DNA from: a virus
Taxonomy: Duplodnaviria; Heunggongvirae; Uroviricota; Caudoviricetes
Direction: 5' to 3' (one strand)
Virus record (IMG/VR): IMGVR_UViG_2718218127_000003
Length of the DNA: 21,552 nucleotides
In this document: positions 2,476-19,868 of the stretch, in pieces
How positions within the stretch are numbered: the stretch's first letter is position 1
How the letters are laid out: every line of letters starts with the position of its first letter
Notes under the pieces: model-generated
What the model saw: only the letters and a program-made list of their open reading frames with translations
The model's database searches: none
Told to the model about the DNA's origin: nothing
Made by a program: the position numbers and the translations under genes

Positions 2476-3057
2476 TTACCCTATAGGTGCTACTGGCCAT
2501 TCAATATCCGGAGCAGTTGTTGTATTAACACGGTTCAGCAACACCCGATACTTTTTCCAGGCTTCCAGCAACGAGTTTTCTTCCTCCGTTGCGATTTCCA
2601 GATCTACAGCATCCTGAAGTGGCGCAATATGCTCATTCGCTGCCTGCATCAGGCTGTTTTTTGTTTCTTCCGCCTCCCGGATCCGGAATAGTTTTTCTGC
2701 TTCTGCATCTTTCACCCAGGCTGTGCCGTTCCACTTCTGAAACTCCCCTTCCGGGGATAACCAAGTGGCATTTTCCGGTAACGGACCGAGTTCAGAAATA
2801 AATAACGCGTCGCCGGAAGCCACGTCATAAACCGTTTTACCCCGATGATCTTCAACGAGATGCCACGATGCCTCATCACTGTTGAAAACAGCCACGAAGC
2901 CTGCCGGAATATCTGGCGGTGCAATATCGGTACTGTTTGCTGGCAGACCTGTATGAGGCGGAATATATGCGTCACCTTCACCAATAAATTCATTAGTTCC
3001 GGCCAGCAGATTATAAATTTTTATGGTCCGTGGTTGTTCACTCATTCTGAATGCCAT
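2476..3057 (-). CDS. Phage tail fiber assembly protein (Tfa)
   Basis: The N-terminus [54 protein letters not shown] is characteristic of lambdoid Tfa chaperones. The ATG overlaps the stop of the upstream stf fragment (TAATG). Confidence 0.85.
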
Positions 3058-3297
3058 TATGCAAGCCTCACAATATAGTTAAATGCGATGTTTTTGACGG
3101 TGTTTTCCGCGTTACCAGCAGCGTTAACGGTGATGGTATGTCCATGTGAACCAATCGCAACGGAGTGCGTATGAGCACCAATACCGACAGTATGTGCGTG
3201 TGCACCTGCGCTTGCAGCAGTACCCGATACAGAGTGCGTATGAGCGCCTGCAGAAGAAGTGTTAACACTGTATTTAGAATAATCAGGTGATCCACTT
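3057..3297 (-). pseudogene. Side tail fiber (stf) gene, 3'-terminal remnant of about 80 codons
   Basis: My own translation of an alternative minus-strand frame gives ...[79 protein letters not shown], the (G)AHTHSV-repeat C-terminus of lambdoid side tail fibers. There is no start codon; it is fused upstream to the nu1 fragment. Confidence 0.7.
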
Positions 3298-3625
3298 CCA
3301 CCACTTCAGCGGAGTCTCTGGCATTCTTCAGTTCCTGTGCGTCGGCCTGCGCACGCGTAAGTCGATGGCGTTCGTACTCAATAGTCCCTGGCTGGAGATC
3401 TGCCTCGCTGGCCTGGCGCAGTTCTTCAACCTCCCGGCGCAGCTTTTCGTTCTCAATTTCAGCATCCCTTTCGGCATACCATTTTATAACGGCGGCAGAG
3501 TCATAAAGCACCTCATTACCCTTGCCACCGCCTCGCAGAACGGGCATTCCCTGTTCCTGCCAGTTCTGAATGGTACGGATACTCGCACCGAAAATGTCAG
3601 CCAGCTGCTTTTTGTTGACTTCCAT
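3296..3625 (-). pseudogene. nu1: Terminase small subunit Nu1, N-terminal 110 codons only
   Basis: [110 protein letters not shown] matches lambda Nu1 as I recall it. After codon 110 the frame runs into out-of-frame stf sequence (the listed 185-aa ORF is a chimera). Confidence 0.85.
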
Positions 3626-12906: not shown

Positions 12907-12978
12907 ATATGTACCTCCGGTGTACATATTACATGATTGAAATGAACCTTCAAGATACTTGTACCTTAACGGTACAAG
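12907..12978. promoter_or_regulatory. Immunity operator/promoter region (oR-like) with two palindromes between cro and cI
   Basis: ATATGTAC-ctccggt-GTACATAT (12907-12929) and CTTGTACC-ttaac-GGTACAAG (12958-12978) share the half-site (A/T)TGTACC. Confidence 0.5.
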
Positions 12979-12993
12979 GGTTTTAATTTCGTT

Positions 12994-13668
12994 ATGAAAA
13001 CAATCCATGACATCCGGCGGTCTAACGCCAGAAAACTGAGAGATGGTGTTGGCGGGAATTCTTCCTTTGCCACTATGATTGATCGCGAGCCAACCCAGAC
13101 CAGCAGGTTTATGGGAGATGGTGCTACTAAAAATATCGGTGACAGCATGGCACGACACATCGAAAAATGTTTCGACCTGCCTGTCGGATGGCTCGATCAA
13201 GAACACCAGACAACGAACATCACAAAAAAACCTGATGTTTCAATCACTAATAAACAAATCACATTAGTCCCTGTCATATCATGGGTACAGGCCGGAGCAT
13301 GGAAAGAAGTTGGATATTCTGAGGTTGATTTGAGCACAGCAGAAACGTATCCCTGCCCTGTACCCTGTGGGGAAATGACTTATATCTTGCGGGTGATAGG
13401 TGATTCAATGATTGATGAGTACCGCCCGGGAGACATGATTTTTGTCGATCCTGAAGTACCTGCCTGCCACGGTGACGACGTTATTGCATTGATGCACGAT
13501 ACAGGTGAAACCACCTTCAAAAGGTTGATAGAAGATGGGACACAGCGTTATCTCAAAGCGTTAAACCCAAACTGGCCTGAGCCTTACATTAAGATCAACG
13601 GTAATTGCTCTATAATTGGAACTGTGATTTTCTCAGGAAAACCAAGAAGATACAAAATCAAAGCCTAA
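12994..13668 (+). CDS. cI-like prophage repressor: N-terminal HTH, C-terminal S24 (LexA-like) autopeptidase
   Basis: The C-terminal domain has an AG cleavage site (VQAG/AW), the GDSM serine motif and a downstream Lys (TFKRL). The ATG has almost no SD, consistent with a leaderless pRM-type transcript. Confidence 0.85.
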   Translation: MKTIHDIRRSNARKLRDGVGGNSSFATMIDREPTQTSRFMGDGATKNIGDSMARHIEKCFDLPVGWLDQEHQTTNITKKPDVSITNKQITLVPVISWVQAGAWKEVGYSEVDLSTAETYPCPVPCGEMTYILRVIGDSMIDEYRPGDMIFVDPEVPACHGDDVIALMHDTGETTFKRLIEDGTQRYLKALNPNWPEPYIKINGNCSIIGTVIFSGKPRRYKIKA

Positions 13669-13688
13669 TCAATGTTTATGAACCTGCT

Positions 13689-13712
13689 TCGGCAGGTTTT
13701 TTTATACTTGAC
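13689..13712 (+). terminator. Intrinsic terminator after the cI-like gene
   Basis: AACCTGC-ttcg-GCAGGTT followed by TTTTTTT. Confidence 0.6.
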
Positions 13713-13715
13713 AAT

Positions 13716-13749
13716 GTACCTTTGAGATACATAATGTACCCAAGAGAAA
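13716..13749 (+). promoter_or_regulatory. pL-like promoter overlapped by an operator palindrome
   Basis: TTGACA-N16-CATAAT. The spacer contains ATGTACC-tttga-GATACAT (13722-13740), the same half-site and 5-bp spacing as the oR palindromes, plus a further ATGTACC at 13742-13748. Confidence 0.5.
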
Positions 13750-13816
13750 CAACAAACAGGCAGGACGCCCACGAAGTATCCGCCTGGGGCATATGAAGTC
13801 CAGGATGATTCGTTAG

Positions 13817-13846
13817 CAACAAAAAAGCGCCCTACAGGACGCTTAG
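13817..13846 (-). terminator. Intrinsic terminator downstream of the 173-aa gene
   Basis: On the minus strand: AAGCG-tcctgtaggg-CGCTT followed by TTTTGTTG. Confidence 0.45.
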
Positions 13847-13885
13847 CTCTTTAACAATCTGGGTATCATCCAACCAATGCAAGAT

Positions 13886-14407
13886 TTAAGGAATCCAAGG
13901 CGAATTCAGATCTCGCCCCAACTCACGTAATGATCTTGGTCGTTCGTACATCGGATTTTTTTCCATAAGAAATTTATTTTCACAGTGAAGGCAACGGCTT
14001 GTAAGAAAATGAGAAGTTTTACCTACTGGAAGCGGATGAAGTATCGATTTTATATTTTTGGAATAACAAAGTGGGCACAGATGCACAGTTATTTCTTTTC
14101 CACTCACAATTTCATTTTTAGAGTAAACAAAAGCACCAGAGTCAAGCTGATCAAGGACATATCCTTCTACCTTGGCACAAAAATCTTCAAACTCTGCAAT
14201 TTTTGCTTTGAGATGCATCACCTCTTCATCACGAAGGCGGATCGCATCGCCAAGAGAGAAGCATTCTGCCTGAAGCGTGATTAGTTTGTTCTGGAGTTCA
14301 ATGGTTGCAGCTTTAACTTCTGCATCCGTTTTCGCGTCATTAATAACCTTAGCAAGACCGGCAGTCTCCTTTATAGCGGCCATAGCCGCAGACAGTTCAG
14401 CTATCAC
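13886..14407 (-). CDS. Hypothetical protein, 173 aa: N-terminal coiled coil and C-terminal CxxC-X22-CxxC zinc-ribbon-like motif
   Basis: ...HLCPLCYSKNIKSILHPLPVGKTSHFLTSRCLHCENKF. The gene is AT-rich, convergent with cI, and has its own terminator. The start is uncertain (GTG at 14405-14407 or the ATG 8 codons in). Confidence 0.55.
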   Translation of the reverse strand: MIAELSAAMAAIKETAGLAKVINDAKTDAEVKAATIELQNKLITLQAECFSLGDAIRLRDEEVMHLKAKIAEFEDFCAKVEGYVLDQLDSGAFVYSKNEIVSGKEITVHLCPLCYSKNIKSILHPLPVGKTSHFLTSRCLHCENKFLMEKNPMYERPRSLRELGRDLNSPWIP

Positions 14408-14876
14408 GTTGAATACTCAGCTAGTTGTTGGGGATATCCAGATTAACCAAATCCTTGTTGTTGGGGAATAACTAGGTCCACCTCGCCTGATGTGGCTAAA
14501 AGCAGGCACATAACAGCTAAGTATTTTCAACCAGAGAGAATCCTTAGCGTTGTGGTGAATGCGGCTCAGCGCACGCGGGTTAAGGTTGAGGCTGACAGTC
14601 GACCTTCTGTGGATACCCACCCGCCTGGTGTGCAACCTTCGCCAGGCACCGGGAGGCACCCGGCACCACAACTTTATGCTGTGTGTAGTCCTGGCGGTAT
14701 CAGCTTGTACCCTTGCTTCCGGCTGGTACCGTCCTTTTTACAAAACAGAGAAGAGCATCACCGGACGACGGGCTCATAACCCAATCCATCCGGGCGGCTG
14801 CCACCGCAGGTGTTCTTCTCTGTTTTGTGGAGAAACCAACCGACCCTGCAGGGTCGATATGATGGGGAGCAGCAAA

Positions 14877-15239
14877 ATGGCTAGCGAACGCAGTACTGAT
14901 GTGCAGGCATTTATCGGGGAGCTGGACGGCGGCGTATTTGAAACCAAAATCGGCGCAGTTCTCAGTGAAGTCGCTTCCGGTGTGATGAACACGAAAACCA
15001 AAGGTAAGGTCTCGCTCAACCTGGAAATCGAACCGTTTGATGAGAACCGTGTAAAAATCAAACACAAACTCTCATATGTTCGCCCGACTAACCGCGGGAA
15101 AATTTCCGAAGAAGACACCACCGAAACGCCGATGTATGTCAATCGCGGTGGTCGCCTGACTATTCTGCAGGAAGACCAGGGACAATTACTGACTCTTGCC
15201 GGTGAACCTGACGGAAAACTCCGCGCAGCAGGTCGTTAA
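14877..15239 (+). CDS. YfdP-like prophage protein (120 aa)
   Basis: MASERSTDVQAFIGELDGGVFETKIGAVLSEV... ATG at 14877 is preceded by GGGGAG with 7-nt spacing. The upstream in-frame extension is GC-rich and low-complexity and is rejected. Confidence 0.7.
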   Translation: MASERSTDVQAFIGELDGGVFETKIGAVLSEVASGVMNTKTKGKVSLNLEIEPFDENRVKIKHKLSYVRPTNRGKISEEDTTETPMYVNRGGRLTILQEDQGQLLTLAGEPDGKLRAAGR

Positions 15240-17475: not shown

Positions 17476-17497
17476 GATGGCTTAAAGAGAGGTGCCC

Positions 17498-17748
17498 ATG
17501 AGCGGTAAGCGTTATCCCGAAGAGTTTAAAACTGAAGCAGTCAAACAGGTTGTTGATCGCGGTTATTCTGTTGCCAGCGTTGCAACACGTCTCGATATCA
17601 CCACCCACAGCCTTTATGCCTGGATAAAGAAGTACGGTCCGGATTCTTCCACTAATAAAGAACAGTCAGATGCTCAGGCCGAGATCCGCCGTCTCCAGAA
17701 AGAGCTGAAACGGGTTACCGACGAACGGGACATATTAAAAAAAGCCGC
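17498..17748 (+). pseudogene. IS3-family OrfA (HTH), interrupted by IS30; the last 9 codons resume at 18972-18999
   Basis: MSGKRYPEEFKTEAVKQVVDRGYSVASVATRLDITTHSLYAWIKKYG...ILKKAA, then after IS30 AYFAKLSD*. Confidence 0.8.
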
Positions 17749-18969
17749 TGTAGATTCAATTGGTCAACGCAACAGTTATGTGAAAACATGGGGTTGCGGA
17801 GGTTTTTTGAATGAGACGAACATTTACAGCAGAGGAAAAAGCCTCTGTTTTTGAACTATGGAAGAACGGAACAGGCTTCAGTGAAATAGCGAATATCCTG
17901 GGTTCAAAACCCGGAACGATCTTCACTATGTTAAGGGATACTGGCGGCATAAAACCCCATGAGCGTAAGCGGGCTGTAGCTCACCTGACACTGTCTGAGC
18001 GCGAGGAGATACGAGCTGGTTTGTCAGCCAAAATGAGCATTCGTGCGATAGCTACTGCGCTGAATCGCAGTCCTTCGACGATCTCACGTGAAGTTCAGCG
18101 TAATCGGGGCAGACGCTATTACAAAGCTGTTGATGCTAATAACCGAGCCAACAGAATGGCGAAAAGGCCAAAACCGTGCTTACTGGATCAAAATTTACCA
18201 TTGCGAAAGCTTGTTCTGGAAAAGCTGGAGATGAAATGGTCTCCAGAGCAAATATCAGGATGGTTAAGGCGAACAAAACCACGTCAAAAAACGCTGCGAA
18301 TATCACCTGAGACAATTTATAAAACGCTGTACTTTCGTAGCCGTGAAGCGCTACACCACCTGAATATACAGCATCTGCGACGGTCGCATAGCCTTCGCCA
18401 TGGCAGGCGTCATACCCGCAAAGGCGAAAGAGGTACGATTAACATAGTGAACGGAACACCAATTCACGAACGTTCCCGAAATATCGATAACAGACGCTCT
18501 CTGGGGCATTGGGAGGGCGATTTAGTCTCAGGTACAAAAAACTCTCATATAGCCACACTTGTAGACCGAAAATCACGTTATACGATCATCCTTAGACTCA
18601 GGGGCAAAGATTCTGTCTCAGTAAATCAGGCTCTTACCGACAAATTCCTGAGTTTACCGTCAGAACTCAGAAAATCACTGACATGGGACAGAGGAATGGA
18701 ACTGGCCAGACATCTAGAATTTACTGTCAGCACCGGCGTTAAAGTTTACTTCTGCGATCCTCAGAGTCCTTGGCAGCGGGGAACAAATGAGAACACAAAT
18801 GGGCTAATTCGGCAGTACTTTCCTAAAAAGACATGTCTTGCCCAATATACTCAACATGAACTAGATCTGGTTGCTGCTCAGCTAAACAACAGACCGAGAA
18901 AGACACTGAAGTTCAAAACACCGAAAGAGATAATTGAAAGGGGTGTTGCATTGACAGATTGAATCTACA
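17749..18969 (+). mobile_element. IS30, complete (1221 bp) with a 2-bp GC target duplication
   Basis: Ends TGTAGATTCAATTGGTCAACGC... and ...GACAGATTGAATCTACA. GC is present on both flanks. Confidence 0.9.
17811..18962 (+). CDS. insI: IS30 transposase (383 aa)
   Basis: MRRTFTAEEKASVFELWKNGTGFSEIANILGSKPGTIFTMLRDTGG... through the DDE domain to the IS30 end. Confidence 0.9.
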   Translation: MRRTFTAEEKASVFELWKNGTGFSEIANILGSKPGTIFTMLRDTGGIKPHERKRAVAHLTLSEREEIRAGLSAKMSIRAIATALNRSPSTISREVQRNRGRRYYKAVDANNRANRMAKRPKPCLLDQNLPLRKLVLEKLEMKWSPEQISGWLRRTKPRQKTLRISPETIYKTLYFRSREALHHLNIQHLRRSHSLRHGRRHTRKGERGTINIVNGTPIHERSRNIDNRRSLGHWEGDLVSGTKNSHIATLVDRKSRYTIILRLRGKDSVSVNQALTDKFLSLPSELRKSLTWDRGMELARHLEFTVSTGVKVYFCDPQSPWQRGTNENTNGLIRQYFPKKTCLAQYTQHELDLVAAQLNNRPRKTLKFKTPKEIIERGVALTD

Positions 18970-19055
18970 GCGGCGTACTTCGCAAAGCTGTCCGACTGAG
19001 GTACGCCTTTATCCGTGACAACTCCTGTTGCTGGCCTGTTCGCCTGCTCTGTCGG

Positions 19056-19868
19056 GTGCTGGATGTTCATCCCAGTGGTTTTTACGCCTGGCTTCAGCAG
19101 CCGCATTCACAACGCCATCAGGCAGACCTGAGACTGACAGGACAGATTAAACAGTTCTGGCTGGAATCGGGATGCGTCTATGGTTATCGCAAAATCCATC
19201 TGGATTTGCGTGACAGCGGGCAACAGTGCGGAGTAAACAGAGTCTGGAGACTGATGAAACGTGTCGGAATAAAGGCTCAGGTCGGATACCGAAGCCCGCG
19301 GGCACGTAAAGGCGAGGCCAGTATCGTGTCACCCAACAGGCTCCAGCGACAGTTCAATCCGGATGCTCCTGATGAGCGTTGGGTAACGGACATAACCTAC
19401 ATCAGGACCCACGAAGGCTGGCTGTATCTTGCCGTTGTTGTTGATCTGTTCTCACGCAAAATTATCGGCTGGTCCATGCAATCCCGGATGACAAAGGACA
19501 TTGTCCTGAACGCACTGCTGATGGCTGTATGGCGGCGTAATCCCGAAAAACAGGTGCTGGTTCATTCGGATCAGGGCAGTCAGTACACAAGCCATGAGTG
19601 GCAGTCGTTCCTGAAATCACACGGCCTGGAGGGTAGCATGAGCCGTCGCGGTAACTGCCATGATAATGCGGTTGCAGAAAGTTTTTTCCAGTTGTTGAAA
19701 CGTGAACGGATAAAGAAAAAGATCTACGGAACGCGGGAAGAAGCCCGCAGTGATATTTTTGATTACATCGAAATGTTTTATAACAGTAAGCGTCGGCATG
19801 GTTCTAGCGAACAGATGTCACCGACAGAATATGAAAACCAGTATTATCAACGGCTCGGAAGTGTCTAG
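19056..19868 (+). CDS. IS3-family OrfB transposase (rve/DDE domain); the 5' part overlaps orfA and is normally reached by a -1 frameshift
   Basis: ...WVTDITYIRTHEGWLYLAVVVDLFSRKIIGWSM...LVHSDQGSQYTS...GNCHDNAVAESFF... Confidence 0.85.
   Translation: MLDVHPSGFYAWLQQPHSQRHQADLRLTGQIKQFWLESGCVYGYRKIHLDLRDSGQQCGVNRVWRLMKRVGIKAQVGYRSPRARKGEASIVSPNRLQRQFNPDAPDERWVTDITYIRTHEGWLYLAVVVDLFSRKIIGWSMQSRMTKDIVLNALLMAVWRRNPEKQVLVHSDQGSQYTSHEWQSFLKSHGLEGSMSRRGNCHDNAVAESFFQLLKRERIKKKIYGTREEARSDIFDYIEMFYNSKRRHGSSEQMSPTEYENQYYQRLGSV

Follow-up and report, generated by a model that had tools for sequence, protein, structure and literature searches.

An uncharacterised Rip1-family gene beside the repressor of a decayed lambdoid Escherichia coli prophage

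Layout of the locus

The stretch of DNA analysed here (21,552 nt, IMG/VR record IMGVR_UViG_2718218127_000003; hereafter the window) is an E. coli prophage of the lambdoid, SfV/SfIV-like type in a decayed state, and the positions of its features are collected in Table 1. An intact open reading frame of 173 amino acids with a GTG start occupies positions 13886..14407 of the minus strand, as an initial annotation, which had proposed a gene on the opposite strand at this place, had listed exactly. RefSeq labels its product "hypothetical protein" (WP_000559913.1). The gene is AT-rich, as had been noted: its GC content is 41.4% (32% at third codon positions). The window as a whole has 44.9%, and the neighbouring segment 14417-14860 has 53.6%. 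The terminator ascribed to it is also found, as a minus-strand hairpin at 13844-13825 followed by a T-run.

The gene had been assigned to the position that rex occupies in lambda. This assignment holds in part: the gene lies beside cI, but not between cI and pL, being located downstream of the pL-like promoter. That promoter points from the plus strand across the minus-strand gene, so that, judged by orientation, pL-like transcription would run antisense to it, in line with the initial annotation. The palindrome TGTACC-N5-GGTACA occurs five times in the window against 0.49 expected, a number reached in 0 of 100 shuffles. Because copies lie both at the pL-like promoter and between cI and cro, the promoter is very probably repressor-controlled, and four of the palindromes are predicted to define the oR-like and oL-like sites of this immunity type. 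A consensus promoter scan of the minus strand from 13600 to 14950 found no sigma-70 promoter for the gene, and nothing credible emerged when the 290 nt before the GTG were scanned with relaxed criteria; expression of the gene in the lysogen is therefore assumed. Our best guess for a -10 element is the TAAT box upstream of the gene, for which no -35 match was found.

About 110 nt past the pL-like promoter, directly after the terminator hairpin of the minus-strand gene, the early-left transcript carries GCTCTTTAACAA, which is boxA-like in that it matches exactly what we take to be the core of the rrn boxA consensus. The order of hairpin and then boxA at 13846-13857 resembles that of rrn antiterminators. 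No N-like gene is evident in the window.

Further along the early-left transcript, between the 173-residue gene and yfdP, positions 14519-14741 of the plus strand form a candidate structured RNA within the GC-rich segment 14417-14860. Folding gives z-scores of -5.18 (plus strand) and -2.72 (minus strand). The stretch matches Rfam STnc100 over its full length at a sub-threshold score (40.5 bits, with a gathering score of 47; E 4.9e-7), and positions 14680-14734 give a weak DicF-like Rfam match (E 0.12). PGAP calls the same stretch a frameshifted hypothetical pseudogene.

Decay of the prophage is apparent in the truncated Nu1 gene, in partial replication genes and in a left arm that ends in IS elements. 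The Nu1-like open reading frame appears to be fused to tail-fibre remnants, and all morphogenesis genes that lay between them therefore seem to have been deleted. The prophage thus retains a truncated small terminase together with a relative of a Rip1 protein known to bind a small-terminase ring.

Table 1. Positions of the features in the window; cells are empty where no value is given.
Feature	Position	Strand	Remarks
Rfam IS009 (RF02111)	2516-2714	-	full-length match, 212 bits, E 4e-52
Nu1-like 185-aa ORF	3068-3625	-	first 138 residues match small terminase Nu1, Pfam E 1.9e-69
Cro-like ymfT, ymfL		-	neighbours of cI
Operator-like palindromes TGTACC-N5-GGTACA	12910, 12960 (span 12910-12976)	+	cI-cro intergenic; oR-like
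cI-type repressor (ymfK, LexA/S24 family)	12994..13668	+	convergent with the Rip1-family gene; terminator 13680-13699
pL-like promoter TTGACA-16-CATAAT	13708-13735	+	11/12 match to consensus
Operator-like palindromes TGTACC-N5-GGTACA	13715-13731, 13735-13751	+	overlap the pL-like promoter; oL-like
Second terminator-like hairpin	13756..13772	-	between the Rip1-family gene and the pL/oL region
Intrinsic terminator of the Rip1-family gene	13818..13844	-	8-bp stem (5 GC pairs), 4-nt loop, T-run; identical in PhiR29_1
boxA-like GCTCTTTAACAA	13846..13857	+	exact match to rrn boxA core; early-left transcript
Rip1-family CDS	13886..14407	-	GTG at 14407-14405; predicted helices 2-24 and 28-79; predicted zinc-ribbon beta domain with C111/C114/C139/C142
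Leader	14408..14510	-	about 100 nt upstream of GTG; two interleaved helices
SD-like GAG	14418-14416	-	weak; in leader, before GTG
Second leader repeat CCCCAACAAC	14433-14424	-	
TAAT box GTTAAT	14447-14442	-	in leader; TATAAT in some variants
First leader repeat TTCCCCAACAAC	14468-14457	-	
Leader helix S2	CCAC 14495-14492 with GTGG 14481-14478	-	in leader
Leader helix S1	GCCTG 14507-14503 with CAGGC 14489-14485	-	in leader
yfdP, yfdQ, yfdR		+	neighbours beyond the Rip1-family gene
IS3-family orfA-like gene	17492-17854	+	left arm, nested IS (17492-19868)
Transposase, HTH_38 and rve domains	17811-18962	+	left arm, nested IS
IS3-type orfB	19056-19868	+	left arm, nested IS

Assignment of the protein to the Rip1 family

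A phmmer search of the PDB with the single protein returned one significant chain, 9oox_L, "ring interacting pore 1 (Rip1)", with an E value of 1.8e-9. In the alignment, query residues 5-151 correspond to residues 15-160 of 164, and both CxxC pairs are aligned; with a profile of 51 homologs the E value for the same chain is 3.1e-20. Entry 9OOX, released on 2026-02-04, carries the title HK446 Rip1 in complex with T6 small terminase. By BLASTP, the protein is 30% identical to JBD30_030 from Pseudomonas over 152 residues (E 3e-20) and 25% identical to HK446_037 over 147 residues (E 2e-13), and tblastn against phage genomes links it to the Pseudomonas D3112/DMS3/JBD30 group (E 1e-12) and to HK446. 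No match in Pfam, NCBIfam or PADLOC rose above threshold, and no Rex family was hit. PADLOC (2023) has no model for the Rip1 family and thus provides no independent defence-database call. In PHROGs v4, phrog_1244 matches the protein over nearly its full length (E 2.7e-52); this family of unknown function has no functional annotation, and the Rip1 link comes from the PDB and fold searches.

The AlphaFold2 model built from the alignment of the 51 homologs (mean pLDDT of 92.1) consists of two long helices followed by a six-stranded domain that bears the cysteines. The helices span residues 2-24 and 28-79, about 75 residues in total, in agreement with the coiled coil of ~75 residues described initially. 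When this model was compared with the PDB by Foldseek, only 9oox_L and 9oox_M were found at E<=0.001, with a probability of 1.00 and TM scores of 0.52-0.71 on the target. The AlphaFold2 and Foldseek part of the structural check proposed in the initial annotation (HHpred or AlphaFold with Foldseek) was thus carried out, and the confident model matches the HK446 Rip1 structure alone. Hydropathy peaks at a mean of 1.15 over 18 residues and no classical transmembrane segment is found, which fits a protein that would stay soluble until triggered. The N-terminus is Ala/Gly-rich, and its raw hydrophobic moment is moderate.

The cysteines had been described as a CPLC-X22-CLHC motif. Both CxxC pairs are present (C111-C114 and C139-C142), but the spacer between them is 24 residues rather than 22. 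None of the four cysteines varies among 51 close homologs, and in a set of 136 sequences, with distant representatives and HK446 Rip1 among them, each is retained in 98-100%. The absence of CxxC pairs from homologs, named at the outset as an observation that would count against the proposal, was therefore not found; the pairs are essentially invariant. The C-terminal four-cysteine site is zinc-ribbon-like and may bind metal.

A coiled coil joined to a zinc ribbon could also suggest, as the initial annotation allowed, a regulator of immunity or expression, for example an anti-repressor, a transcription factor or a kinase-activator-like adaptor. The gene does adjoin immunity genes, and sub-threshold matches were obtained to CdsZ in NCBIfam (E 0.11) and to the McsA-like "protein-arginine kinase activator" 8wtb (E 0.24). 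We nevertheless consider a regulator very unlikely for several reasons: (i) The CdsZ match reaches 11.9 bits where the family cut-off is 275, and the matches of this kind cover only the CxxC or coiled-coil parts. (ii) The full-length Rip1 match is better by many orders of magnitude. (iii) No DNA-binding domain was found in the 173-residue protein. (iv) The cassette adjoins at least three unrelated repressor types, as seen for an allele about 99% identical to that of the window, and the JBD30 and Serratia copies lie away from immunity genes.

On the evidence of sequence, predicted fold, cysteines and conservation, we file the protein as a Rip1 member; the window gene is an uncharacterised enterobacterial representative of that family. 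The initial annotation had recognised no family and had called the factor undescribed. Neither statement stands, since the protein is a clear Rip1 homolog, matching 9OOX both by sequence and by fold, and since Rip1 has already been described (PDB 9OOX; Patel et al. 2026, Nature 651:1060, as summarised in PMC13434031). A match to a family with an unrelated function would have told against the proposed exclusion factor, and the match that was found is to a related function. The exclusion idea is accordingly supported, with defence as the most likely role on the strength of Rip1 homology. The assignment gives a name and a testable mechanism to the hypothetical protein WP_000559913.1 / phrog_1244.

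Conservation, cassette structure and the leader

Homologs in Enterobacterales made up 167 clusters in a word-indexed protein search, and an exhaustive profile search of clusters at 50% identity found 2494 at E<=1e-3 and 781 at E<=1e-10, nearly all of 145-180 residues. The GTG start is retained in 81 of 82 related loci. A closely related prophage context is available in PhiR29_1, whose flanks are about 99% identical to the window while the allele between them is 58% identical at the protein level, with a dN/dS of 0.26. The homologous clusters and this ratio identify the 173-residue open reading frame as more than a chance one. Divergence between the two begins just 5' of the GTG, with scattered changes in the preceding 25 nt or so, and stops about 35 nt past the stop codon. 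The annotated PhiR29_1 CDS (L003 2784-3512, PV340556) comprises 242 residues and places the conserved GTG 69 codons downstream of its start. This CDS is an over-extension that is open by chance, and the true start is the conserved GTG; in the window, the same frame has a stop codon directly ahead of that GTG.

Variation is unevenly distributed along the protein. Column entropy averages 0.95 bits in residues 1-100 and rises to 2.03 bits in residues 101-173, a pattern in keeping with an effector half that is conserved and a sensor half that diversifies. If the C-terminal half is indeed such a sensor, the existing alleles would provide a ready panel for mapping the phage rings that are sensed.

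Among 5426 complete E. coli genomes, 52 carry the exact allele (at least 99% identity) and 733 (about 13%), O157:H7 included, carry relatives of the gene at the DNA level. An allele about 99% identical to that of the window is also present in IMG/VR contigs of 40-48 kb (L012 and L023). These data bear on the reading that the gene is a non-functional relic, which is suggested by the state of the prophage, with its morphogenesis genes gone, other genes truncated and IS elements inserted. The intact reading frame, the dN/dS of 0.26, the recurrence of the allele in the 52 genomes and in the larger contigs, and the conservation of leader, start codon and terminator all argue against a relic, and we give that reading very little weight.

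The system consists of a single gene, here in an SfV-like prophage remnant and elsewhere in prophages and phages. In every annotated relative that was inspected (HK446, JBD30, vB_EcoM-689R2, O157:H7 TR01, Edwardsiella and Serratia), the Rip1-type gene is antisense to neighbouring lytic genes. The copies in vB_EcoM-689R2, O157:H7 TR01 and Edwardsiella are convergent with the repressor and antisense to early-left genes, and the Serratia copy adjoins tail sheath genes. A convergent 3' neighbour was counted in 73 of 80 IMG/VR loci, with a cI-like repressor as that neighbour in 44, although this is a crude count based on open reading frames and the loci are highly redundant rather than independent observations. 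The gene is a stand-alone moron cassette, composed of leader, GTG-start reading frame and terminator, in a repressor/early-left swap site, and the enterobacterial Rip1 clade occupies this repressor-adjacent site. Since the orientation recurs in all of the relatives inspected, opposition of the gene by pL on induction is consistent with a family-wide trait.

Conservation is higher in the leader, which takes up about 100 nt ahead of the GTG, than in the protein encoded behind it. The sequence beyond it is unrelated between loci, which indicates that the leader moves with the cassette. Within the leader, two direct repeats of CCCCAACAAC enclose the TAAT box, and the helices S1 and S2 have the topology of an H-type pseudoknot and covary. 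Across 24 distinct leaders, 88.8% of cells pair, compared with 82.0% in shuffles (0 of 500 reach the observed value), five pairs are changed on both sides (1 of 500 shuffles), and covariation scores 0.160, compared with 0.047 for shuffles (reached by 0 of 500), where counts are made on fixed columns and CACG/CGTG variants of helix 2, one column off register, are scored as unpaired. Slid controls are paired to 48% at most. An Orbaceae leader keeps both helices with entirely different sequences, ACCGA/TCGGT and TCACA/TGTGA, and there are no G-U pairs in the leader helices. An Rfam search of the leader gave nothing even at E<=5, and in an unconstrained pseudoknot search shuffled sequences often scored equally well. 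Two further readings of the leader were dropped: a third pairing, of CAGG with a downstream CCTG, showed no covariation in CCGG variants, and a sigma-E-like reading (AAC...TCTGG) was too weak.

Of 5426 complete E. coli genomes, 1520 (28%) carry the leader, always unannotated, and it also occurs in loci L008, L012-L126, L137, L147, L148, L169, L211 and L222. A scan of genome contigs with a short pattern found six true leaders, its other matches being mostly random. The pattern first used on viral contigs had a spacing that excluded the variant in the window, and it revealed alternative cargos. In the same slot, the leader precedes an unrelated ECs1072-family protein of 144 residues, as well as a 170-residue hypothetical protein, a zinc-ribbon protein of about 75 residues, a hydrophobic protein of 104 residues and other small open reading frames. 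In L147, too, it is followed by a cargo of 144 residues. As a tentative proposal, possible though not one we would call probable, the leader could be an undescribed cis-regulatory module that sets lysogen-specific, early-left-antisense expression of repressor-adjacent morons, many of them presumably defences, and might switch them off at induction. Such a switch-off, if it occurs, would prevent Rip1 from triggering itself, and the antisense layout and the shared leader together suggest how prophages might avoid triggering their own pore-former.

Proposed mechanism and comparison with known systems

In the summary given in PMC13434031, which presents the work of Patel et al., Rip1 is a single prophage protein that is non-toxic alone. 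Phages that escape it are described there as altered in the portal protein (Pseudomonas phages) or in the small terminase (coliphages), and an 11-mer small terminase is described as ringed by twelve Rip1 monomers, with an amphipathic helix in the N-terminal part and ring contact by the C-terminal half. The complex is reported in the same summary to form a pore that lets dye out of liposomes and leaves holes in cells, with premature lysis of the infected cell, and homologs are said to be widespread in proteobacteria and mostly prophage-borne. The portion of a meeting report that concerns Rip1 (PMC12908700) agrees with this account.

By homology and analogy with these proteins, we propose, with a probability of roughly 0.75, that the lysogen makes a Rip1-family pore-former that is templated by a phage ring and aborts superinfection. 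The inferred points are expression in the lysogen, binding to a ring, formation of a pore, the nature of the trigger, and silencing by pL when the prophage is induced. By analogy with characterised Rip1, a lysogen would produce the window protein as soluble monomers that do no harm. A superinfecting phage would form a ring oligomer late in infection, either its small terminase or its portal, and the variable C-terminal zinc-ribbon half would bind around this ring. The ring may then template an assembly of about 12 subunits of the window protein, whose conserved, presumably amphipathic N-terminal helices would form a membrane pore, and the pore would kill or prematurely permeabilise the cell before progeny mature.

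The window protein is just 25-30% identical to members of both characterised Rip1 groups, so the specificity of its trigger, and even the class of trigger, could differ. This divergence, together with the variability of the putative sensor half, which is the most variable part of the family, and the great size and diversity of the family (the 2494 clusters noted above), leaves some room for a Rip1 fold with another trigger or role. The protein might respond to another oligomeric phage or host assembly, or it might control lysis or packaging of its own prophage. We judge this improbable. The characterised Rip1 proteins already answer different rings, portal in one case and small terminase in the other, in the PMC13434031 summary, so a varying trigger belongs to the mechanism as it is known and does not compete with it, and a role in the prophage's own late programme is argued against by the orientation of the gene opposite the lytic operons.

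HK446 Rip1 and the window protein are similar in length (about 165-173 residues) and align end to end, with N-terminal helices followed by a beta domain. Both genes belong to lambdoid coliphages and lie near the immunity region on the strand opposite the pL operon. They differ in their exact placement: HK446 Rip1 follows N inside the pL operon, with HK446_039 between cI and pL, whereas the window gene is the first downstream of pL. The JBD30 homolog, unlike the window gene, is not beside the repressor; it is found in the late region, flanked by a DUF1804 gene and a 550-aa gene. In our reading the DUF1804 gene is small-terminase-like, and the 550-aa gene is probably the large terminase; this placement matches the position "between small and large terminase" given in the PMC13434031 summary. 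The homologs from Mu-like phages of Pseudomonas aeruginosa (JBD30_030, D3112 orf25, DMS3 and MP38) share the architecture of the window protein and are likewise antisense to their lytic flanks.

The RexAB system of lambda is prophage-encoded, expressed in lysogeny beside cI and acts by membrane-depolarising abortive infection. Rex comprises two proteins, co-transcribed with cI from pRM, whose genes lie between cI and pL. The window system, in contrast, is a single gene without Rex similarity that lies beyond pL on the opposite strand and is not co-transcribed with cI, and its mechanism, by homology to Rip1, would be templated by a ring of the infecting phage.
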